Assembly (NCBI RefSeq): GCF_030019515.1 | Contig: NZ_JASEEQ010000005.1 | Coordinates: 63,810-87,809 of the forward strand | Direction of reading: 5' to 3' | Source: Nocardioides sp. | GTDB taxonomy: Bacteria > Actinomycetota > Actinomycetes > Propionibacteriales > Nocardioidaceae | Length of the DNA: 24,000 nt | In this document: one piece after another, positions 5,609 to 24,000 of the stretch | How the letters are laid out: every line of letters begins with the position of its first letter | Numbering within the stretch: position 1 is the stretch's first letter | Program-made: the position numbers and the translations under genes | The notes under the pieces: model-generated | What the model saw: only the letters and a program-made list of their open reading frames with translations | Database searches by the model: none | Told to the model about the DNA's origin: nothing

Positions 5609-6673
5609 TCAGTCCCCTCCCGTTCCCAGTGCGTCCAGGCCGGCCTCGACCAGGGGGTCGAAGCCGGCGCCGATCCTGTCGAAGCCCTCGCCGACGGTCT
5701 GGCCCTGGAGGAATCTGAAGCTGATGCCCTCGAGGATCACGGCGAGCTTGAAGTAGGCGAGCCCGAGGTGGAACCCCAGGCCCGAGCGGAGGTCCCCGAG
5801 GTCCCGGCCGCTGGCGACGGCGTACCGCGCGAGGTGCTGGTCCGGGGTCGGGTAGCCCGGCGCCAGGCTGACGTCGGACACCAGCCCGGCCGCGGGCAGC
5901 GCCCCGAGCCGGTCGTAGACCAGCAGCAGGGCGAGGTCGGTGCGGGTGTCGCCGAGCGTCGCCATCTCCCAGTCGACGACCGCCTTGACCTGGTCGTCGG
6001 CGCCGGTGAGCAGGTTGTCGAGGCGGTAGTCGCCGTGCACGACGCCGACGTGCTCGCGGGCCGTCTCGTCGTCGGGCACCCGCTCGGTCAGCAGCCGGTG
6101 CAGCTCGTCGGCGGCCGGGCGGTCCTGGGTCTTCGAGCCCTCGAGCTGCTGGCCCCAGCGCCGCACCTGGCGCCCCAGGAAGCCCTCGGGCCGGCCGAAG
6201 CCCGCGAGCCCGACCGCCGCGGGGTCGACCGCGTGCAGCGTGGCCAGCACGTCGATCATCCGGCCGGCGATGGTCGCGGTGCGCTCCGGGCCGAGCGACG
6301 CCAGCTGGGAGACCGAGCGGTACGCCGTGCCGGCGACCCGCTCCATCACGTAGAACGGCGCCCCGAGGACCTCGGGGTCGGCGCAGTGCGCGTACGTGGC
6401 GGGCACCGGGACGGCCGTGCCCGCCAGCGCGCTCATCGCGGTGTACTCGCGGCCCATGTCGTGGGCGGTCGCCTGGACGTGCCCGAGGGGCGGCCGGCGC
6501 ACGATCCACCAGGAGTCGCCGTCGGTGACCTCGTAGGTGAGGTTGGACCGGCCGCCGGCGATCACCTGGGCGCGCAGCTCACCCGCGATCTCACCGGGCC
6601 GCTGCTCGTCGTACCAGTGGCGGAAGGAGGCGAGGTCGAGGCCGGGGACGTCGTGGGCCCGCAGGTCGCTCAC
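5609..6673 (-). CDS. Phosphotransferase family protein (APH/choline-kinase fold, ACAD10/11 N-terminal-domain-like kinase)
   Basis: In-frame GTG at 6673 gives VSDLRAHDVPGLD...GGRSNLTYEVTDGDSWWIVRRPPLG. The Brenner/catalytic region is VVHGDYRLDNLL and the metal-binding region is VVDWEMATLGD. The GTGA start overlaps the upstream SDR stop by 4 nt. Its stop is 1 nt from the ACAD ATG. Confidence 0.85.
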   Translation of the reverse strand: MSDLRAHDVPGLDLASFRHWYDEQRPGEIAGELRAQVIAGGRSNLTYEVTDGDSWWIVRRPPLGHVQATAHDMGREYTAMSALAGTAVPVPATYAHCADPEVLGAPFYVMERVAGTAYRSVSQLASLGPERTATIAGRMIDVLATLHAVDPAAVGLAGFGRPEGFLGRQVRRWGQQLEGSKTQDRPAADELHRLLTERVPDDETAREHVGVVHGDYRLDNLLTGADDQVKAVVDWEMATLGDTRTDLALLLVYDRLGALPAAGLVSDVSLAPGYPTPDQHLARYAVASGRDLGDLRSGLGFHLGLAYFKLAVILEGISFRFLQGQTVGEGFDRIGAGFDPLVEAGLDALGTGGD

Positions 6674-8906: not shown

Positions 8907-10532
8907 TCAGATCCAGCGCGAGAACCAGATCCGGTCCAGCCACTCGGAGTGGGTGAGCAGCTGGTCGGTGTAGATCGGCCAGAACCAGGCGAAATTCAGC
9001 AGCACCAGCACGAAGAACGTGCCCGCGGCGATCACGCCGGCGGTGCGCCGGCCCGAGGGTCCGTCGGCCGGGCCGATCATCCGGCCGATCGCGAGGACCA
9101 GCGCGAGCACCAGGAACGGCAGCGTGATCACCGCGTAGAAGGAGAAGATCGGCCGGTCGTCGTACTGCAGCCACGGCAGCCAGGTCGAGGCGGCGCCGAC
9201 GACCACGACGCCGAAGCGCCAGTCCCGGGAGCCGGCCCACATCACGACGGCGAAGACCAGCGCGAGGCAGCCGGCCCACCAGAGGACGGGGGTGCCGAGC
9301 AGCAGCACCTGGCGCAGGCAGTCGCTGTCGGCGGGGGCGTGGCAGCCCTGGCTGCCGGGCTGGATGTCGACGTCGGCGGCGACGCCCACCGGGCGGTTGA
9401 GCAGCAGCCAGCCGGACGGCTGGGAGGCGTAGGTGTGCGTGCTGTCGTTGAGGAACCGGGTGTGGAAGGTGTAGACGTCCTGGTGGTAGTACCAGAGCGA
9501 CCGCAGCGACTGGGTCACCTCGCCCAGGCCGGACGCGTCCGCCTCGGTGCGGGTCGGCCAGTCCTGGCCGCCGTCGAAGTGCGTGTACTGCGTGGCGGAG
9601 AGGTGCTCCTCGTACTCGTGCGCATTGACCAGCCAGCCGCTCCAGGTCGCGACGTACACGAAGAACGCGACCAGCACGAGGTGCACGAACGCCGGGATGC
9701 CGTCGACCACCGCGGCGCGCAGGATCGGCCACCGCACCCCGAACGAGCGGCGGGCGCCCGCCGACCACAGCCAGACCATCAGCCCGAACGCGGCGAGCGG
9801 GTAGACCGCCTCCCACTTGGTGCCGACCGCCAGTCCCCAGCAGATCCCGCCGAGCAGCAGCCAGGGCCGGAACAGCACTCCGCGCACCGGTCCCCACGCC
9901 CGAGAGTCGTCGATCGGCGCGGGGACCAGACGGGCGAGCCGGGCGCGGTGCCAGTCCCGGTCGGCGACCACGCAGTGCACGCCGCAGAGCAGGAAGAACG
10001 CCACGAAGATGTCGAGCAGGGCGAGCCGGGACAGCACGAACTGGAGGCCGTCGAAGCACAGCAGCAGCCCGGCCAGGACGCCGAGGAACGTCGAGCCGGT
10101 GAGCCGCCGGGCGAGCCGGATCATCACCAGCACCATCAGCGAGCCGATGACGGCGGCCGCGACCCGCCAGCCGAACGGGTCCATCCCGAAGACCTTGATG
10201 CCCGCCGCGATCAGCCACTTCCCGACCTCGGGGTGGACGATCATCTCGGGGGTGTCCTTGAAGACGCCGGAGAGCGTCTGGCCCCGCAGGATCAGGTCGT
10301 TCGCCTTCTCCGTGGTGTCGTGCTCGAAGCCGTAGTTGAGCAGCGACCAGGCGTCCTTGGCGTAGTAGGTCTCGTCGAACTCGAAGACGTGCGGGCGGCC
10401 GAGCCTCCACAGCCGCAGGAACAGGGCCAGCAGCGTGACCGCGACGGTCGCCGTCCAGCCGATGAACGGGTCCTCGAGCCGGGCCCGGCTCCGGGCGCGC
10501 TCCCAGGCGGAGGGAGGGGCGCCGGTCGTCAC
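8907..10532 (-). CDS. pmt: Dolichyl/polyprenyl-phosphate-mannose protein O-mannosyltransferase (PMT family, GT39)
   Basis: C-terminal 541 aa of the 848-aa track ORF. It is polytopic and has the DE motif in loop 1 (HVFEFDETYYAKDA) typical of Pmt. It is divergent from rsmI, as in mycobacteria (Rv1002c/Rv1003). Start assigned to GTG 10532 (VTTGAPPS...); no other start codon is available upstream in frame. Confidence 0.85.
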   Translation of the reverse strand: MTTGAPPSAWERARSRARLEDPFIGWTATVAVTLLALFLRLWRLGRPHVFEFDETYYAKDAWSLLNYGFEHDTTEKANDLILRGQTLSGVFKDTPEMIVHPEVGKWLIAAGIKVFGMDPFGWRVAAAVIGSLMVLVMIRLARRLTGSTFLGVLAGLLLCFDGLQFVLSRLALLDIFVAFFLLCGVHCVVADRDWHRARLARLVPAPIDDSRAWGPVRGVLFRPWLLLGGICWGLAVGTKWEAVYPLAAFGLMVWLWSAGARRSFGVRWPILRAAVVDGIPAFVHLVLVAFFVYVATWSGWLVNAHEYEEHLSATQYTHFDGGQDWPTRTEADASGLGEVTQSLRSLWYYHQDVYTFHTRFLNDSTHTYASQPSGWLLLNRPVGVAADVDIQPGSQGCHAPADSDCLRQVLLLGTPVLWWAGCLALVFAVVMWAGSRDWRFGVVVVGAASTWLPWLQYDDRPIFSFYAVITLPFLVLALVLAIGRMIGPADGPSGRRTAGVIAAGTFFVLVLLNFAWFWPIYTDQLLTHSEWLDRIWFSRWI

Positions 10533-10580
10533 GGGCCCGAGGATACGGGCCCCGAGATCAGACGCTGCGATGATCGGGGC

Positions 10581-11441
10581 GTGGACGACAGCCTGGGCGT
10601 GCTCGTGCTGGCGGCGACCCCGATCGGCCGGGTCGCCGACGCGCCGCCGCGGCTCGCCGACGAGCTGGCGACCGCCGACGTCGTCGCTGCCGAGGACACC
10701 CGCCGGCTCAAGCGGCTCACGACCGAGCTCGGGGTGAGCATCGGCGGTCGCGTCGTGTCCTACTTCGAGGGCAACGAGTCGGCCCGCACGCCGGCGCTGC
10801 TCGAGAGCCTCCTCGCCGGTGAGCGGGTGCTGCTGGTCACCGACGCGGGCATGCCCAGCGTCTCCGACCCCGGCTACCGCCTGGTGGTCGCCGCCGTCGA
10901 GCACGACGTGCGGGTCACCGCGGTCCCCGGCCCGTCGGCGGTCCTGACCGCGCTCGCGGTCTCCGGCCTGCCGGTCGACCGGTTCTGCTTCGAGGGGTTC
11001 CTGCCCCGCAAGCCGGGGGAGCGGCGGCGCCGCCTCGCCGACCTGCGCGACGAGCGCCGCACGATGGTGTTCTTCGAGGCGCCGCACCGCACCGAGGCCG
11101 CGCTCGCCGCGATGGCCGAGGCGCTCGGCGCCGACCGCGCGGCCGCGGTGTGCCGCGAGCTCACCAAGACCCACGAGGAGGTACGACGAGGTCCGCTCGC
11201 CGAGCTCGTGGCCTGGGCGGCCGAGGGGGTGCGCGGCGAGGTCACCCTCGTGGTCGCGGGCGCCGAGCCGGCGGCCGAGGTCGCGAGCGACCCGGCGAGC
11301 TTGCGGGCCGCGGTCGCCGACCTGGAGAGTGAGGGCGTGCCGCGCAAGGAGGCGATCGTCGTGGTCGCTCGCCGCGCCGGCGTACCGAAGCGCGAGGTCT
11401 ACAACCTGGTTCACGACAAGGGCCACGGAGCACAGGAGTGA
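10581..11441 (+). CDS. rsmI: 16S rRNA (cytidine1402-2'-O)-methyltransferase RsmI
   Basis: In-frame GTG at 10581 gives VDDSLGVLVLAATPIGRVADAPPRL...DAGMPSVSDPGYRLV...TAVPGPSA, a tetrapyrrole-methylase-fold RsmI signature. The upstream part of the 830-aa track ORF is antisense to pmt and is not coding. Confidence 0.9.
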   Translation: MDDSLGVLVLAATPIGRVADAPPRLADELATADVVAAEDTRRLKRLTTELGVSIGGRVVSYFEGNESARTPALLESLLAGERVLLVTDAGMPSVSDPGYRLVVAAVEHDVRVTAVPGPSAVLTALAVSGLPVDRFCFEGFLPRKPGERRRRLADLRDERRTMVFFEAPHRTEAALAAMAEALGADRAAAVCRELTKTHEEVRRGPLAELVAWAAEGVRGEVTLVVAGAEPAAEVASDPASLRAAVADLESEGVPRKEAIVVVARRAGVPKREVYNLVHDKGHGAQE

Positions 11442-12295
11442 GCATGAGCGCACGGATCACCCGGCTGGAGCACGACGGCCTCACCTTCGACGTCCTCGAC
11501 GAGGGGCCGCTGGACGGGCCCCCGGTCGTGCTGCTGCACGGCTTCCCGGAGCGCAGCTCGACCTGGGCGGCGGTCGCGCCGATCCTGCACGGGGCGGGGC
11601 TCCGCACCTACGCCCTCGACCAGCGCGGCTACTCCCCGGGCGCGCGGCCGCGCGGTCGGTGGAGCTACCGGCTCCCGCTCCTGGTCGGCGACGTCGCTGC
11701 GCTGATCGAACGGATCGGCCGGCCCGTCCACCTGGTCGGGCACGACTGGGGCGCCGCGGTCGGCTGGGCCGTCGCCGGACGGCTCCCGGAGCAGGTCCGC
11801 ACCTTCACCGCAGTGTCGGTGCCGCACCCCGCCGCCTTCGTCCGGGCGATGAGGAGCCGGAGCCAGCGCCGGCGGTCCGGCTACATGGCGCTGTTCAACC
11901 TCCCGGTGCTCCCCGAGCTGATGGCGCGGGCGCCCGGCGGCCGCTTCGATCGAGCGATGCGCAAGGCCGGGATGACCGCCGAGGAGGTCGTCCGGTTCCG
12001 CACCGAGATCGTCGAGTACGGCGCGCTGCACCACGCGCTCGGGTGGTACCGCGGCGTGCCGTTCACCCGCCCGGGCAGCACCGACGTCACGGTGACGGTC
12101 CCGACCACGCTGGTGTGGAGCGACCGGGACATCGCCATCGGTCGCGAGGGGGTCGACGGCACCGCGCGCTGGGTGGACGCGCCGTACGACCTGGTCGTGC
12201 TCGAGGGCGTCAGCCACTGGATCCCGACCCAGGCGCCCGAGGAGTGCGCGGCCGCGATCCTGGCCCGCGTGCGGGGCACGGAAGCGACGCGGTGA
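11438..12295 (+). CDS. Alpha/beta fold hydrolase (epoxide hydrolase / haloalkane dehalogenase-like)
   Basis: 285 aa. It has the HGFP oxyanion motif (VVLLHGFPERS) and the nucleophile elbow GHDWGA (Asp nucleophile type). GTG 11438 overlaps the rsmI stop. ATG 11444, with AGGAG 5 nt upstream, is an alternative start. Confidence 0.85.
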   Translation: MSMSARITRLEHDGLTFDVLDEGPLDGPPVVLLHGFPERSSTWAAVAPILHGAGLRTYALDQRGYSPGARPRGRWSYRLPLLVGDVAALIERIGRPVHLVGHDWGAAVGWAVAGRLPEQVRTFTAVSVPHPAAFVRAMRSRSQRRRSGYMALFNLPVLPELMARAPGGRFDRAMRKAGMTAEEVVRFRTEIVEYGALHHALGWYRGVPFTRPGSTDVTVTVPTTLVWSDRDIAIGREGVDGTARWVDAPYDLVVLEGVSHWIPTQAPEECAAAILARVRGTEATR

Positions 12296-13116: not shown

Positions 13117-14490
<1,374 letters not shown>

Positions 14491-15476: not shown

Positions 15477-16372
15477 CCGTGCGCGCCCCCGCGAAGATCA
15501 ACCTGCACCTCGGGGTCGGCGCCCCCGGTGCGGACGGCTTCCATCCCCTGGTCACGGTGTACCAGGCGGTCGGCCTCTACGACGACGTCACCGCGCGCGA
15601 GGCGCCGGACTGGAGCCTGGGCGTCGGCCTGCCGGACTGGATGGACGACGACGCCGTACCCCTCAACGGCGCGAACATCGTCGACCGGGCCGCCGACCTG
15701 CTCGCGGCCCACCACGGGGTCGAGCGGAGCGGCGAGCTGCACATCGCCAAGGCGATCCCGGTCGCGGGCGGCATGGCCGGCGGCTCCGCGGACGCCGCCG
15801 CGGCGCTGGTCGCCCTGGACCGGCTCTGGGGGCTGGGCACGTCCGACGACGACCTCCTCGCGCTCGCCGCCCGGCTGGGCAGCGACGTGCCGTTCGCGCT
15901 GCTGGGCGGCACCGCGCTGGGGACCGGCCGCGGCGAGCTGGTCACGCCGGTGCAGGACCGTGGCACCTGGTGGTGGGTGGTCGTCCCCTCCGACACCGGC
16001 CTGTCGACCCCGGAGGTCTACCGGCACTTCGACCGGATGTTCCCCGACGCGCCCGCCCAGCCGGTGCCCGCCGACGCAGTGCTCGGCGCGATCGCCGTGG
16101 GCGACGCCTGGGAGCTCGCGGACGCCCTGCACAACGACCTCGAGGCGGCCGCGATCGACCTGCGGCCCGAGCTGGGCCGGCTGATCGAGCAGGGCGAGGA
16201 GGCCGGGGCGCTGCGCGGCCTGGTGTCCGGCTCCGGGCCCACCTGCGTGTTCCTGTGCGGCTCCGCGGACCACGCCCGCTCGCTGGCCGCCGACCTGTCC
16301 GGCGCCGGCCATCCGGTCGTCCTGGCGGCCAACGGGCCGGTCGCCGGCGCCCACCTGGTCTCCTATGCCTAG
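15467..16372 (+). CDS. ispE: 4-(cytidine 5'-diphospho)-2-C-methyl-D-erythritol kinase IspE
   Basis: GTG 15467 (GGGAGG 7 nt upstream, 10-nt overlap with the rsmA end) gives [17 protein letters not shown]. The GHMP kinase motif is [15 protein letters not shown]. Confidence 0.93.
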
Positions 16373-18242
16373 CCCCGGGACCAACCTGGTCAACCTCGAG
16401 CGGGTCTCCAAGGCGTACGGCGTCCGGCCGCTGCTCACCGAGGTCTCGCTCGGCATCGGCGCCGGCGAGCGGGTCGGCATCGTCGGCCGCAACGGCGACG
16501 GGAAGACCACGCTCCTCGAGCTGATGACGGGGTTGGAGGAGCCGGACTCGGGACGGGTCTCCCGCAGCCGTGGGCTGCAGGTCGGGTACCTCCACCAGGC
16601 CGACCAGCTGGAGGACTCGCACACCGTGCGCGAGGCGGTGCTGGCCGGTCGCTCCGACCACGAGTGGGCCGCGGACCCGCGCACCCGTGAGGTCGTCGAG
16701 GTGCTGCTGGCCGGCGTGGCGCTGGACCGCGCGGTGCTCGGCCTGTCCGGCGGCGAGCGCCGGCGCTGCTCGCTCGCCGCGCTGCTGCTCGGCGAGCACG
16801 ACCTGGTGGTCCTCGACGAGCCGACCAACCACCTCGACGTGGAGGCGGTCGCCTGGCTGGCGGACCACCTGGTCCGCCGTACCTCCGCGCTCGTCGTCGT
16901 CACCCACGACCGCTGGTTCCTCGACGCGGTCTGCCAGTGGACCTGGGAGGTGCACGACGGCGTCGTGGACGTCTACGAGGGCGGGTACGCCGCCTTCGTG
17001 CTGGCCAAGGCCGAGCGGCTGCGGCAGGCGGCGGCCTCGGAGGTGCGCCGGCAGAACCTGGTCCGCAAGGAGCTGGCCTGGCTGCGCCGCGGGCCGCCGG
17101 CCCGGACCTCGAAGCCGAAGTTCCGCATCGACGCGGCCAACCAGCTGATCGAGGACGTGCCGCCCCCGCGGGACCGGCTCGAGCTGCAGCGGTTCGCCAC
17201 CCAGCGGCTCGGCAAGGACGTGGTCGACGTCGAGGACGTCGACCTGATCCGCGGGACGCCGGGGGAGGGCGGCCGGCAGCTGCTCGCGCACGCGACCTGG
17301 CGGCTCGGGCCCGGCGACCGGGTCGGCATCGTCGGGGTCAACGGCGCCGGCAAGACCTCGGTGCTGTCGCTGCTCTCCGGCGAGCTCGCGCCGTCGGCGG
17401 GGCGGGTCCGGCTGGGCCGGACCGTCGCGCTGCAGCACCTCACCCAGCAGCTCGACGACCTCGACCCCGAGGGCCGGGTGCTGGCGACCGTCGAGTCGAT
17501 CCGGCGGGTGACCAGGACCACCGACGGGGAGGTCACCGCGAGCGCGATGCTGGAGCGCTTCGGCTTCACCGGCGACCGGCTCACCGCCCGGGTCGGCGAC
17601 CTGTCCGGGGGCGAGCGGCGGCGCTTCCAGCTGCTGCGGCTGCTGCTCACCGAGCCCAACGTGCTGCTGCTAGACGAGCCCACCAACGACCTGGACATCG
17701 AGACGCTCAACGTCCTGGAGGACTTCCTCGACGGCTGGCCCGGCACGCTCGTGGTCGTCTCCCACGACCGGTACTTCCTCGAGCGGGTCACCGACTCGGT
17801 GTGGGCGCTGCTCGGCGACGGGCAGATCTCGATGCTGCCCCGCGGCGTCGACGAGTACCTCGAGCGGCGGAGCGAGCAGCTCCGCGCGGGGGACGAGCGC
17901 GCGGCGTGGGCGAGCGAAGGTCGAGCACGCGACGCCGCCGAGGGACGAGGCGGCGCGAGCGGGTCGGGACCCGGTGAGCCGGTCGCCGGCCCCGGCCTCC
18001 GCCACGTCCCCAAGGCCAAGCCCGGGAGTGCGGAGGAGCGGGCGGCACGCAAGACGATCGCCCGGATCGACAAGCGCCTCGAGCGGATCGCGGAGCAGGA
18101 GGCGACGCTGACCGCGCGGGCGCTCGAGCACGCGCAGGACTACGAGCGGCTCGCCGAGCTCAGCGAGGAGCTGCAGACGCTTGCTGCGGAGAAGGACGAG
18201 CTCGAGCTCGAGTGGCTCGAGGCGGCCGAGCTGCTGGAGTAG
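16365..18242 (+). CDS. ABC-F family ATPase (two ABC domains, Uup-like with C-terminal coiled coil)
   Basis: 625 aa. Walker A GRNGDGKT and GVNGAGKT, signatures LSGGERRR (twice), Walker B LVVLDEPTNHLD and VLLLDEPTNDLD. The C-terminus is charged and helical. No TM domain. The ATG overlaps the ispE stop by 8 nt. Confidence 0.9.
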   Translation: MPSPGTNLVNLERVSKAYGVRPLLTEVSLGIGAGERVGIVGRNGDGKTTLLELMTGLEEPDSGRVSRSRGLQVGYLHQADQLEDSHTVREAVLAGRSDHEWAADPRTREVVEVLLAGVALDRAVLGLSGGERRRCSLAALLLGEHDLVVLDEPTNHLDVEAVAWLADHLVRRTSALVVVTHDRWFLDAVCQWTWEVHDGVVDVYEGGYAAFVLAKAERLRQAAASEVRRQNLVRKELAWLRRGPPARTSKPKFRIDAANQLIEDVPPPRDRLELQRFATQRLGKDVVDVEDVDLIRGTPGEGGRQLLAHATWRLGPGDRVGIVGVNGAGKTSVLSLLSGELAPSAGRVRLGRTVALQHLTQQLDDLDPEGRVLATVESIRRVTRTTDGEVTASAMLERFGFTGDRLTARVGDLSGGERRRFQLLRLLLTEPNVLLLDEPTNDLDIETLNVLEDFLDGWPGTLVVVSHDRYFLERVTDSVWALLGDGQISMLPRGVDEYLERRSEQLRAGDERAAWASEGRARDAAEGRGGASGSGPGEPVAGPGLRHVPKAKPGSAEERAARKTIARIDKRLERIAEQEATLTARALEHAQDYERLAELSEELQTLAAEKDELELEWLEAAELLE

Positions 18243-20919: not shown

Positions 20920-21399
20920 ATGAGCCAGGTCCTCATCCTGTGGCACAAGACGAGCGCGCTCCCCGTCGTGGGCAGCCGGGTGTTCTCGGTGCTGTTCGCG
21001 CAGAAGGCGCCGTACTTCGCCTCGATCCGCCCCCGCTTCCTCACCATCGAGCCGAACCGAGTCGAGCTGCTGATCCCCAAGCGGCGCCGGGTGCACAACC
21101 ACCTCGGCACCGTGCACGCGATCGCGCTGTGCAACGGTCTCGAGGCTGCGATGGGCGCGCTCGCCGAGGTCACGATCCCGGCCGACCGGCGCTGGATCCC
21201 CCAGGGGATGGAGGTCGCCTACACCGCCAAGGCGACCAGCGACATCGTGTGCATCGCCGAGACCGACCCCGAGCAGTGGCGCTCCGACGCGCTGCCCGAC
21301 ACCGGAGGTCAGCTGCCGGTGCGCGTGCAGGGCGTCCGCGACGACGGCACCGTCGTCATCGAGGGCGTGATCCGGCTCTGGGTCACCCCGCGGGCGTGA
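20920..21399 (+). CDS. DUF4442 domain protein (hotdog-fold, PaaI/thioesterase-like)
   Basis: 159 aa. APYFASIRPRFLTIEPNRVELLIPKRRRVHNHLGTVHAIALCNGLEAAMG matches the DUF4442 family pattern as I recall it. TAATAT (20908-20913) ends 6 nt before the ATG, a candidate leaderless promoter. Confidence 0.75.
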   Translation: MSQVLILWHKTSALPVVGSRVFSVLFAQKAPYFASIRPRFLTIEPNRVELLIPKRRRVHNHLGTVHAIALCNGLEAAMGALAEVTIPADRRWIPQGMEVAYTAKATSDIVCIAETDPEQWRSDALPDTGGQLPVRVQGVRDDGTVVIEGVIRLWVTPRA

Positions 21400-22876
21400 G
21401 CAGGATCGGGTTCGTCAGCGCCACCATCTGCCCCGTGGCCGAGCTCCGGCGCACCTCCGCTCGGACGAACGCCGTGCCGCCCGGCACGGTCGCGTCGAGG
21501 ACCACCGTCCCGCCACTGGCGATCGCCGTACCGTAGGTCGCCGCCGCCGGGCCGAGCAGCGTCGCCACGCAGCCGTCGTCCAGGCCGCTCGCCTCGAGGT
21601 GTACGGCGACCTCGTCGCCGACCGCGCTCGGCACCCGGTCGCCGCACTCGCCGCTGACGTCGCCGAGGGTCGCGGTGAACGTCAGGCCGATGCCCGAGGA
21701 CTCGGCGATCCAGGAGTGCCCGGCCCGGTAGCCGGCGATTATCGCCTCGGTCGAGAGCGACTCCGCGCGTACCACGGTCTGGGCCAGGCCGATCTGCTGC
21801 GCCTGCCGGTGGGTGTCGGAGTTGCCGACCGCGGGCTTGAACGTGCCCGCGCTGAGCAGGGTGTGCCAGCGCTTCACCGTCTGTGCGTTGAAGACGGCGT
21901 TCACGCCGGACCAGGGGCCGTTCCACACCTCGACCGCGTCGACCTCGGAGAACCCCGCGTCGTAGTCCCAGCGGATCGACGGCACCGGCACGCTCGGGTG
22001 CGCGGCGATGGACAGCCCACCCAGGTCGCGCACCTGCTGGGTGAACTCCGCGAGCCGGTCGTCCTCGGGACGGTAGCGCCAGTCGATCCAGGTGTCGGCG
22101 GGCAGCCCGGTCGCCAGCCAGTGCCCGCCGCGGGTGGTGACCTCCTCACCGTTGATCACCAGGAAGCCCTCGGGCACGTGCCGGCCCCAGGTCCGCGTCG
22201 CCGAGCTGTTGTTGTGCTCGGAGGTCCCGATGAAGTCGAGGCCGGCGGCCTGGGCGTACTCGAGCACCTGGCGCCGCGTCTGCGAGCCGTCGGAGAACAC
22301 GGTGTGCACGTGCAGGTCGCCGCGGTACCAGCCGTGGCCGGTGCCCGGGACCGCGGTCGGCGCCGGTGCGGACTCGAAGGCCGGCCCGCGCGGGCCGAAG
22401 CGCAGGGTGACCGTCACCTCGTAGTCGACCCGGCTCATGATCTGGTACGGGCCCAGTGAGATCCGCCAGCGTCCCGGCTCGATCGGCCCGGCCAGGTAGC
22501 CCGGCGTGGCCGACCCGCGGCTGAGGCGGAACGAGGAGCGCGCGCCACCCGTCCAACCCCGGAAGCCGGCGGCGTTGCCCAACCCCACCCCGGAGGGGTC
22601 GAAGATGCCGATGTCGATGACGTTCGTGCTGAAGCCGAACCCGGTGTCGTTGGGCGGCGGATAGGAGTAGGAGACCTCGATCTGGCGTACGCCGCGGGGC
22701 ACCCGGAACGGCAGGTATCGCCAGTCCTCGGTGTCCGTGGGGGAGAAGTGGCCCCGGAACTTCTTGGTGACCGTCGAGCCGGCGGCCGCGGGCTCGAAGG
22801 TGGTCAGCGCGGCGGTGGTCGCCACGCCGGCTCCGGAGAGCAGGAGCCGGCGACGGTCGAGGTGATGGCTGCTCAT
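21383..22876 (-). CDS. Tat-secreted PHP-domain metallohydrolase (CehA/McbA family)
   Basis: 497 aa. Twin-arginine signal [24 protein letters not shown]. An N-terminal beta-rich domain precedes the PHP motifs [18 protein letters not shown] and GNSDTH. Its 3' end overlaps the convergent DUF4442 gene by 17 nt. Confidence 0.8.
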
Positions 22877-22893
22877 GGTGCCACCAGGATGGC

Positions 22894-23250
22894 TCAGCGC
22901 GAGCCGCGTCGTACGGCGAACCCGGTGATTGCGGCCGCGAGCAGCATCGAGCCGCCGACCAGGCCGGGCCAGATCCCCAGCTCACCGTGCTCGCGGTGGC
23001 CACGCAGGCTCCGGTGGCACTGGTAGGAGAGCGCCGAGCCGTTGCTCTCCCGGGAGCACACCGAGGCCGCGCTCTGGAAGGACAGCACCGACGCCGCGGA
23101 CATCAGCGAGCCCAGCGACCCCGCCGACATCAGCGATCCGACGCTGCCGAACGAGGCGACCGAGCCGATGCTCCCGATCGAGAGGACCGACCCGTCCGAC
23201 CACAGCGAGAGGATCGAGCCGCGCGAGCCGTGGGACCATATGGACCGCAC
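22894..23250 (-). CDS. Hypothetical 118-aa protein with 25 consecutive S-x-x triplets (nonapeptide repeats SxGSxLSxG) plus a C-terminal hydrophobic segment and basic tail
   Basis: GTG 23250 gives [120 protein letters not shown]3 is high. The stop is 17 nt upstream of the co-oriented PHP hydrolase start. Strand assignment is uncertain because the antisense frame (23042..23296 +) shares wobble positions and is also open. The TM-plus-RR tail favours the minus strand. Confidence 0.45.
23011..23235. repeat. 27-bp-periodic degenerate tandem repeat (about 8 units), with strict 3-bp periodicity
   Basis: Example + strand units: GACCGAGCCGATGCTCCCGATCGAGAG / GACCGACCCGTCCGACCACAGCGAGAG / GATCGAGCCGCGCGAGCCGTGGGACCA. 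GACATCAGCGA recurs at 27-nt spacing (23099 and 23126). Confidence 0.75.
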
Positions 23251-23270
23251 GGTACGCCGCGGTTCGGCCC

Positions 23271-23286
23271 GGCGGGCCGGCCCGCC
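23271..23286. promoter_or_regulatory. Perfect 16-bp palindrome GGCGGGCCGGCCCGCC in the divergent spacer upstream of miaB
   Basis: Read directly from the sequence. It lies between the GTG at 23250 (minus-strand gene) and the miaB ATG at 23305. Function is unknown. Confidence 0.3.
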
Positions 23287-23304
23287 GTACCCTTGACGAC
23301 TGTC

Positions 23305-24000
23305 ATGGCCACCGCACAGCGCACGTACCAGGTCCGCACCTACGGGTGCCAGATGAACGTCCACGACTCCGAGCGGCTCACCGGGCTGCTCGAGGACGCG
23401 GGCTACGTCGCCGCGGCCGACGGCAAGCAGGCCGACGTGGTCGTGTTCAACACCTGTGCGGTGCGGGAGAACGCCGACAACAAGCTCTACGGCAACCTCG
23501 GCCACCTGGCGCCGGTCAAGGCCGCGACGCCGGGGATGCAGATCGCCGTCGGCGGCTGTCTGGCGCAGAAGGACCGCGACACGATCACCGCCCGGGCGCC
23601 GTGGGTCGACGTGGTGTTCGGCACCCACAACATCGGCTCGCTCCCGGCGCTGCTGGAGCGGGCGCGCGTCCAGGACGAGGCGCAGGTCGAGATCCTCGAG
23701 TCGCTCGAGGTGTTCCCCTCCACGCTGCCGACGCGGCGCGAGTCGGCGTACGCCGCCTGGGTCTCGGTGTCGGTGGGCTGCAACAACACCTGCACGTTCT
23801 GCATCGTCCCCAGCCTGCGCGGCAAGGAGAAGGACCGCCGCCCCGGCGAGATCCTCGCCGAGGTCGAGGCACTGGTCGCGGAGGGCGTCTCGGAGATCAC
23901 CCTGCTGGGGCAGAACGTCAACGCGTACGGCGTGGAGTTCGGCGACCGGCAGGCGTTCTCCAAGCTGCTGCGCGCCTGCGGGGACATCGAGGGCCTGGAG
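23305..24000 (+). CDS. miaB: tRNA (i6A37) methylthiotransferase MiaB, N-terminal part (runs off the right edge)
   Basis: ATG 23305 gives [25 protein letters not shown]...[13 protein letters not shown]...GGCLAQ (UPF0004 domain cysteines). The radical-SAM motif is [12 protein letters not shown]. The frame is open to position 24000. It is absent from the ORF track because it is edge-truncated. Confidence 0.9.

Follow-up and report, generated by a model that had tools for sequence, protein, structure and literature searches.

A stretch of 24,000 nucleotides from a Nocardioides sp. genome (RefSeq assembly GCF_030019515.1, contig NZ_JASEEQ010000005.1, forward-strand positions 63,810 to 87,809), called here the window, carries on its minus strand, at 22894..23250, a small open reading frame (ORF) in part of whose product every third residue is a serine. 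Translation confirms this pattern, which had been described in an earlier note on the same DNA: serine occupies residues 3, 6 and so on up to 75 without interruption, followed by Cys78 and Ser81, and the codons used in the array are TCG, TCC and AGC. Within each Ser-x-x triplet, the second position is mainly Val, Ile or Ala and the third one mainly Gly or Leu. The array is followed by a basic and His-containing linker, a hydrophobic segment and a short basic end (Table 1). A six-frame scan of the 24-kb window found no second run with at least eight periodic serines, the runner-up scoring 7.

The triplets are themselves organized in units of nine residues. Identity between non-serine residues of the window array is 0.36 at a lag of 9, versus 0.11-0.15 at lags of 3, 6, 12 and 15, which shows that the nonapeptide unit proposed previously is real at the protein level. 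The same holds family-wide, with an identity of 0.38 at lag 9 versus about 0.15 at the other multiples of three. The degenerate 27-bp repeat described for the underlying DNA does exist, but it is weak at that level, with just 2.3 copies detected by Tandem Repeats Finder, which also reports two short 9-bp arrays.

Base composition does not indicate which strand codes. The GC content at third codon positions (GC3) is 0.93 in the serine frame of the window ORF and, as the earlier note had pointed out, it is unable to separate the two strands because the antisense frame shares the wobble positions. The antisense ORF reported on the plus strand, at 23042..23296, in which every third residue is acidic, is indeed present. 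The strands were compared in a set of 83 loci, namely the window itself, 80 relatives retained from a genome scan (designated L0xx) and two loci obtained through exact look-ups; unless stated otherwise, the locus counts given below refer to this set. The periodic positions are serine in 2023 of 2040 cases (99%), encoded by TCG, TCC, AGC, TCA, AGT and TCT. Codons of the AGY type account for 14% of them and are found in 78 of the 83 loci. The antisense frame has Asp there 878 times, Glu 863 times and Leu 282 times, and the nearly 50:50 partition between Asp and Glu is the one predicted by TCS and AGC codons read backwards with a free G/C wobble. A plus-strand protein would thus need Asp, Glu and Leu to be interchangeable, whereas the minus strand keeps serine throughout, which designates the minus strand as the coding one. 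Codon usage at the periodic serines also has a peculiarity of its own: TCG represents 57% of the codons, versus 36% in long neighbouring genes, and AGC is depleted (13% versus 26%).

Substitution patterns were analysed in seven orthologues with a common miaB / DUF4442 synteny, which provide 21 pairs. The ratio of nonsynonymous to synonymous differences per site (pN/pS) is lowest in the serine frame in 21 of the 21 pairs. For the closest pairs, the values are 0.36, 0.28 and 0.24 in this frame, versus 0.79, 0.53 and 0.45 in the antisense frame that shares its wobble positions. The orthologue in L003 encodes a protein 81% identical to that of the window. Array length ranges from 16 to 29 triplets over the 83 loci, and the array of L016 differs from those of the other orthologues by exactly one extra nonapeptide, so that the length change observed corresponds to a whole repeat unit. 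An apparent second array in L007 turned out to be an unrelated simple repeat. With pN/pS lowest in the serine frame of every orthologue pair and both serine codon boxes in use, the earlier proposal that the minus-strand frame codes, with insertions or deletions in steps of the repeat, is borne out. It can be held with great confidence that a genuine coding family lies on the minus strand, and the window ORF is, by these sequence criteria, a genuine protein-coding gene.

Members of this family are numerous. A word-seeded protein search retrieved 247 matches at E <= 0.01, all of them unnamed or labelled 'hypothetical', and a full profile search of 1.84 billion representatives yielded 1073 matches at E <= 0.001, including 395 at E <= 1e-10, almost all of 65-230 amino acids. 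At least 552 stretches were confirmed in a scan of species-representative genomes, and the 80 loci mentioned above were kept from these for comparison. Counted from the inferred start, the proteins have about 90-140 residues. One protein of 2092 residues (P0129), which matches through a different low-complexity repeat only, was rejected, and the other long matches inspected look like upstream over-extensions. The genomes listed as carriers are mostly Actinomycetota. Hosts include Nocardioides, Mumia, Janibacter, Intrasporangium, Streptomyces, Embleya, Yinghuangia and Kitasatospora, as well as Kribbella, Actinoplanes, Rhodococcus, Jatrophihabitans, Frankiaceae and Gaiellales. One member (L071) lies in a metagenome-assembled genome whose label, Rubrivirga sp., is not one of Actinomycetota; this could reflect bin contamination or horizontal transfer.

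The statement of the earlier note that no characterised family matches also holds. No Pfam family model matches the window protein or the family members, the sole NCBIfam signal is a sub-threshold match to HxsA4, discussed below, and no family of PADLOC or PHROGs was matched. A sequence search of the PDB with the family profile returned artificial GS linkers only, and no relative with a solved structure. Rfam gave no match over the whole window. Members in RefSeq are annotated as 'hypothetical protein' (for example WP_202867945.1), and literature searches found no description of such a family. In exact-sequence look-ups, the window small protein, the hydrolase encoded downstream of it and the protein P0065 were absent from the record. 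No relative was found by tblastn on plasmids and phages nor in a scan of 2.9 million viral contigs, and a holin or other mobile-element origin was dropped on this basis. Judged from these searches, the family is large and hitherto undescribed.

The composition of the arrays brings clues about what the serines are for. At the scale of the family, the second position of Ser-x-x is Val, Ile, Ala, Leu or Phe, and the third one is Gly in 34% and Leu in 26% of cases. Proline is virtually excluded (it makes up 0.0% of the arrays in the loci, and 0.09% in a set of 217 independent proteins), threonine amounts to about 1%, charged residues to about 5%, and Asp and Glu together to about 2%. The few exceptions at the periodic position are six Cys, six Gly and five Ala in the 83 loci; in the 217 independent proteins, they are 60 Ala, 29 Cys, seven Gly, five Pro, two Arg and one each of His, Tyr and Thr. 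Threonine is only one mutation away from serine and is normally its commonest replacement. Its near-absence, together with the acceptance of Ala, Cys and Gly, points to a steric need for a small side chain and not for a hydroxyl group, and suggests that the periodic serine is a tight-packing residue rather than a chemical handle. The lack of proline and the scarcity of charges argue against a simple disordered linker. Taken together, these features make a regular, hydrogen-bonded and self-associating structure with a three-residue period the most likely state of the array, and the periodicity looks exceptional and structural in nature. The possibility that the array forms transmembrane segments was discarded: over 19 residues, the highest Kyte-Doolittle mean that it reaches is 1.26-1.76, with values above 1.6 in just 12 of the 83 loci, and serine makes up about one residue in three; the array is thus unlikely to be transmembrane by itself.

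The closest structural analogies are found in the collagen Gly-X-Y repeat and in the polyglycine-II and polyproline-II (PPII) bundles, of which the snow flea antifreeze protein is an example. As in these proteins, one position in three is strictly occupied by a small residue along tens of residues, and this implies a three-fold structural periodicity. However, collagen-type and polyglycine-II folds need glycine as the periodic residue and often contain much proline, whereas the periodic residue is here serine at 99%, proline is lacking, and the other positions are occupied by Val, Ile or Ala and by Gly or Leu. Glycine represents 6 of the 17 exceptions at the periodic position in the loci and 7 of the 106 exceptions in the independent proteins. 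The collagen-like adhesins Scl1 and Scl2 are each matched by one of 113 family members, and AlphaFold2 predicted no collagen-like or polyglycine-II fold for the array in the two subfamilies modelled. The nine-residue unit, with Gly and hydrophobic residues at fixed positions, is also reminiscent of the RTX beta-roll, whose nonapeptide is GGxGxDxUx, with a calcium-binding Asp. The family differs from it in that this Asp is missing, acidic residues are scarce and no secretion signal is present; the beta-roll was moreover supported neither by a Pfam match nor by AlphaFold2.

The start of the gene was delineated by comparing upstream regions. Their alignment reveals a hexamer just before an in-frame start codon: TACGCT, TAGGCT or TAGAGT where the locus is of the Nocardioides type, and CAGGAT, CAGACT or CAAGAT where it is of the Streptomyces or Embleya type. 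The pattern [TC]ANNNT is located 6-7 nt before an in-frame ATG or GTG in 63 of the 83 loci, versus 2.5% of the controls, defined as every ATG or GTG of this DNA; the strict TANNNT with a spacer of 6 or 7 nt is found in 37 loci, versus 0.6% of these controls. A consensus scan for promoters and terminators detected nothing, and this -10 element emerged only from the comparison between loci. Its spacing reproduces the geometry of the leaderless promoters of Mycobacterium tuberculosis, where the Pribnow box of leaderless genes lies 6-8 nt from the gene start (PMC6028130). From this -10 hexamer and its distance to the ATG or GTG, we infer that most loci would be transcribed as a leaderless mRNA. 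The corresponding starts lie 2-15 codons before the first periodic serine and give N-termini such as MWSLWSENS..., MLSWRS..., MSSRWS... or MTKxxx. Since the x-x-Ser register begins at or near the N-terminus, there is no room for a signal peptide. The database members shown carry N-terminal extensions upstream of this start.

Two further observations concern the start region. Around the C-type hexamer (for example in L052, L045 and L082), GGG is found before and ATGAC(N)AA(R), encoding M-T-K, after, and this Streptomyces/Embleya-type region is unusually conserved across genera for a promoter. Many Nocardioides-type N-termini (such as MWSLWSENS in L010, L011 and L023) match the WSXWS pattern of eukaryotic cytokine receptors, a likeness that is probably a coincidence of the x-x-Ser register.

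At the other end of the protein, the array leads into a short linker with many Arg, His and Gln residues. A hydrophobic segment with a best 17-residue Kyte-Doolittle mean above 1.5 is then present in 58 of the 83 loci, with a median of 19 uncharged residues (range 17-24); the short basic end that comes next has a median length of 5 residues and a mean net charge of +2.4. AlphaFold2 was run on monomers of the window protein (113-sequence alignment) and of a Streptomyces-type member (45 sequences). A helix was predicted at residues 96-116 of the former, with a predicted local distance difference test score (pLDDT) of 83-87; the C-terminal helix of the latter is of moderate confidence (pLDDT 64-76). 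Because it is hydrophobic and C-terminal in a protein without a signal peptide, we interpret this helix as a tail anchor, in preference to a processed sorting signal. Bacterial tail-anchored proteins are indeed signal-less, with a single C-terminal transmembrane helix. The likeness lies in the lack of an N-terminal signal, in the single hydrophobic helix within about 30 residues of the C-terminus and in the short end that follows; tail anchoring is nevertheless an architecture and not a homologous family, and not all members studied here have the helix. A survey of tail-anchored membrane proteins has reportedly been made in Streptomyces (PMC3087755). We know of no described example with a tripeptide-periodic N-terminal domain.

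These elements can be assembled into a single picture. The gene stands alone, without a conserved partner, and encodes an array of about 20-29 x-x-Ser triplets that begins at residue 1-3, a basic/His linker and a helix with an Arg-rich end, the anchor being present in about 70% of the members, including that of the window. It would be expressed in most loci from a leaderless mRNA, driven by the -10 hexamer 6-7 nt before the ATG or GTG. The C-terminal helix would tether the serine array to the cytoplasmic membrane, and the array would self-associate through a serine face, a beta-branched hydrophobic face and a Gly/Leu face, its structure possibly forming only in an oligomer or at the membrane. 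As a whole, a leaderless, tail-anchored protein with serine as the packing residue of a self-associating array is the reading that we favour, although with appreciable doubt.

Several points weigh against it. The AlphaFold2 monomers of the two subfamilies show no confident fold for the array (pLDDT 41-55); the regular fold is deduced from composition alone, and the array could be disordered, or it may need oligomerisation or a membrane surface to fold. The solenoid or ladder suggested in the earlier note stays a mere candidate in view of these scores. In 26 of the 63 loci with the hexamer, this element begins with C and not with T. No anchor is detectable in 25 of the 83 loci, which mostly end soon after the array, so that tethering is not essential to the family; three loci (L038, L050 and L073) have long non-hydrophobic tails and may be frameshifted. 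The flanks of the helix carry net charges of +1.9 on its N-terminal side and +2.4 on its C-terminal side; being basic on both sides, they do not single out one membrane orientation. Lastly, the window copy has ATA where its relatives have ATG or GTG, and its only canonical start, GTG 23250, falls within the -10-like hexamer. For this copy, inefficient translation, translation from another transcript and an erroneous base call are thus all conceivable.

This last point opens the way to another explanation, according to which the family is real and the window copy is a decaying or silent allele that has lost its start codon. The ATA aligns with the GTG or ATG of four orthologues, it is preceded at 7 nt by the -10-like hexamer with which GTG 23250 overlaps, and the first AUG of a transcript starting at the usual position would be the out-of-frame ATG 23239, which opens an ORF at 22982..23239. 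Conversely, the 118-codon frame is intact in the window copy and its pN/pS versus L003 is 0.36. The x-x-Ser register is preserved from GTG 23250 (M-R-S), a codon that could serve from an upstream transcription start, and the ATA may be accounted for by a sequencing error. Silencing of this copy is therefore considered unlikely, though it deserves to be kept in mind.

A second alternative would make the array a substrate for chemistry on the serine hydroxyls, through HxsA-like maturation of a ribosomally synthesized and post-translationally modified peptide, dehydration, phosphorylation, or O-glycosylation by the protein O-mannosyltransferase (PMT) encoded in the window. The NCBIfam model HxsA4 (NF038313) gives a weak match to the window protein (24.2 bits, E 4.7e-5) and matches 70 of 113 family members at E <= 0.01, with a best E-value of 2.5e-6 among them. 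HxsA is a repeat protein matured by radical S-adenosylmethionine (rSAM) enzymes (PMC13128918), and an rSAM gene, miaB, is the divergent neighbour of the small ORF. However, the curated cut-off of HxsA4 is 55 bits, His accounts for about 3% of residues at the HxS position and for 1% of all array residues, and no rSAM maturase, cyclodehydratase or dehydratase is conserved beside the gene; miaB is a housekeeping tRNA enzyme which adjoins the small ORF in 8 of the 83 loci only. There is no leader/core organisation, and the C-terminus carries a membrane anchor. Threonine, accepted by most hydroxyl-directed enzymes, is excluded from the periodic position, which does admit Ala, Cys and Gly. These features make a modification substrate improbable, and two ideas of the earlier note lose ground with it, that of a dense array of modifiable hydroxyls and that of a link with the O-mannosyltransferase: the exclusion of threonine argues against a glycosylation target and the PMT gene is unrelated in position.

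HxsA nevertheless deserves a comparison, since it is the only profile match found and, like the present proteins, it is small and has a portion in which every third residue is serine. It is the effector of the HXS antiphage system, with five HxS repeats and a peptidoglycan-binding domain; it is periplasmic, undergoes N-terminal processing, and is encoded with the rSAM proteins HxsB and HxsC and with HxsD (PMC13128918). The window protein differs by its roughly 25 repeats without His, by the lack of Hxs neighbours and of a signal peptide, and by its C-terminal anchor. Clustering of the neighbours of the 83 loci showed no conserved HxsB, HxsC or HxsD gene beside the small ORF, the MiaB-like gene being the sole radical SAM gene nearby, and PADLOC gave no match.

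Table 1. Features of the window; positions are those of the 24,000-nucleotide stretch and residues those of the small ORF read from GTG 23250.
Feature	Position	Strand	Remarks
Small ORF	22894..23250	-	118 codons and stop; GTG 23250 is the sole canonical in-frame start; stop TGA at 22894
(Ser-x-x) array, residues 3-75	23026..23244	-	25 unbroken triplets, 9-residue super-repeat
27-bp tandem repeat portion of the array (DNA level)	23134..23194	.	2.3 copies, 79% matches, 61 bp (Tandem Repeats Finder)
Basic/His linker, residues 76-90	22981..23025	-	Similar basic linkers in homologues
Uncharged hydrophobic C-terminal segment, residues 91-113	22912..22980	-	Read as membrane anchor; best 17-residue Kyte-Doolittle mean 1.97
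Basic C-terminal end RRGSR	22897..22911	-	From translation
-10-like hexamer TACCGT (TANNNT)	23249..23254	-	Aligns with TACGCT of orthologues; overlaps GTG 23250
ATA at the family-consensus start position	23239..23241	-	7 nt after the hexamer; GTG in L003, ATG in L009, L015 and L016
CehA/McbA-family PHP metallohydrolase, downstream	21383..22876	-	NF038032, 2e-58; twin-arginine N-terminus RRRLLL; ATG at 22876
Spacer from small ORF stop to hydrolase start	22877..22893	-	17 nt; L003 spacer identical in length
MiaB-like radical SAM methylthiotransferase, divergent	23305..24000	+	UPF0004 and Radical_SAM; runs off the window end
PMT-family protein O-mannosyltransferase	8907..11453	-	Context gene, ordinary-looking, unrelated in position
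RpfB-like protein (DUF348, G5 and transglycosylase-like domain)	13156..14490	+	Context gene, ordinary-looking
ABC-F type ATPase	16365..18242	+	Context gene, ordinary-looking

The genomic neighbourhood was analysed by clustering all neighbour ORFs of the 83 loci against each other. No conserved partner came out: immediate neighbours are mostly singletons, many of them convergent or divergent, and the largest cluster was rejected because it consists of antisense shadow ORFs with inconsistent ends. The synteny group of the window, in Nocardioides, comprises the divergent miaB, the small ORF and DUF4442. In this region, a block CATGACAGTCGTCAAGGGTACGGCG that spans the miaB start codon on the opposite strand (window 23285..23310) is near-identical in L009, L015, L016 and L042, and more conserved than the remaining intergenic region.

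The downstream neighbour in the window had been recognized earlier as a CehA/McbA-type PHP metallohydrolase starting 17 nt after the small ORF; both the assignment and the gap are correct (Table 1), and the two genes are probably co-transcribed. The small ORF could thus be conceived as a partner or an expression device of the hydrolase, acting as a chaperone, an anchor, or an upstream ORF for coupled translation. Besides the common orientation and the 17-nt gap, shared by the window and L003, this idea draws on a tail-less variant of the small ORF found in L021, L029 and L042, the stop codon of which overlaps the hydrolase start in an ATGA motif (6252-6255, 6270-6273 and 6270-6273, respectively). 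Such an overlap is typical of translational coupling, and co-transcription with coupled translation is likely in this subgroup. However, the hydrolase adjoins the small ORF in 5 of the 83 loci only (the window, L003, L021, L029 and L042), all from one syntenic Nocardioides group, where it is placed between the small ORF and DUF4442. Five other loci (L005, L006, L009, L015 and L016) keep the small ORF and the same miaB / DUF4442 synteny without the hydrolase, and in other loci the gene downstream tends to be convergent or unrelated. The pairing with the hydrolase is a local arrangement and not a property of the family; the adjacency pointed out in the earlier note does not extend beyond it, and a dedicated role beside the hydrolase looks distinctly improbable.

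Export of the protein, with a C-terminus processed as a sorting signal of the sortase, exosortase or rhombosortase type, is still harder to sustain. The tail is tripartite in outline, with a Pro/Gly element, a hydrophobic helix and a basic end, and the helix followed by the basic end, seen in the window and in 58 of the 83 loci, is shared with the LPXTG, PGF-CTERM, PEP-CTERM and GlyGly-CTERM signals. In 25 of the 83 loci, the helix comes after a G-x-x-[LVI]-P element, and the nearly uncharged array (5%) would allow translocation of an N-terminal tail. Against this, the inferred starts (M-W-S... or M-T-K...) leave no room for a signal peptide, and no signature motif before the helix is common to the 83 tails: LPXTG-like motifs occur in 6, PGF and PEP in none. 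The G-x-x-[LVI]-P element is restricted to some clades and is not found in Streptomyces-type members, and the [LVI]P.G element, present in 15 tails, is also clade-specific. Basic residues flank the helix on both sides and no sorting enzyme is linked to the gene. The sorting signal put forward earlier is thus very improbable, which leaves the tail anchor as the preferred interpretation of the C-terminal helix.

Finally, the view that there is no gene on the minus strand, with either a non-coding variable-number tandem repeat between miaB and the hydrolase or the acidic plus-strand ORF as the actual product, can point to an antisense frame which is open with shared wobble positions, to antisense ORFs of at least 90 residues open over the array in 23 loci, and to the consensus scan in which neither a terminator nor a sigma-70 promoter was found, but it is largely refuted and retains hardly any probability, since these antisense ORFs have inconsistent ends, their Asp/Glu/Leu alternation is exactly what the serine codons dictate, pN/pS is always lower in the serine frame, the length change seen is a whole repeat unit, and the start codon, promoter spacing and C-terminal helix are conserved on the serine strand.

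From a methodological point of view, this locus provides an example of strand assignment for a repeat ORF in a high-GC genome where GC3 fails and where the use of both serine codon boxes decides. It is also relevant to annotation, since the database entries shown start upstream of the inferred leaderless start. As judged from its sequence features, the family would add a case to the poorly known leaderless, tail-anchored small proteins of bacteria. More broadly, a conserved small gene without a family model, literature or predicted fold is present in hundreds of actinobacterial species, those of Streptomyces and Nocardioides among them. Its serine periodicity is stricter than that of almost any described repeat, which makes it a target for structural work on tripeptide-periodic proteins beyond collagen-type glycine repeats. 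As a speculation, and a rather doubtful one, the (x-x-Ser)n array might be a previously unseen three-fold periodic fibrous structure, a serine counterpart of Gly-X-Y and polyglycine-II that would assemble exclusively in oligomeric form and give rise, in many soil Actinomycetota, to filaments or sheets tethered to the membrane.

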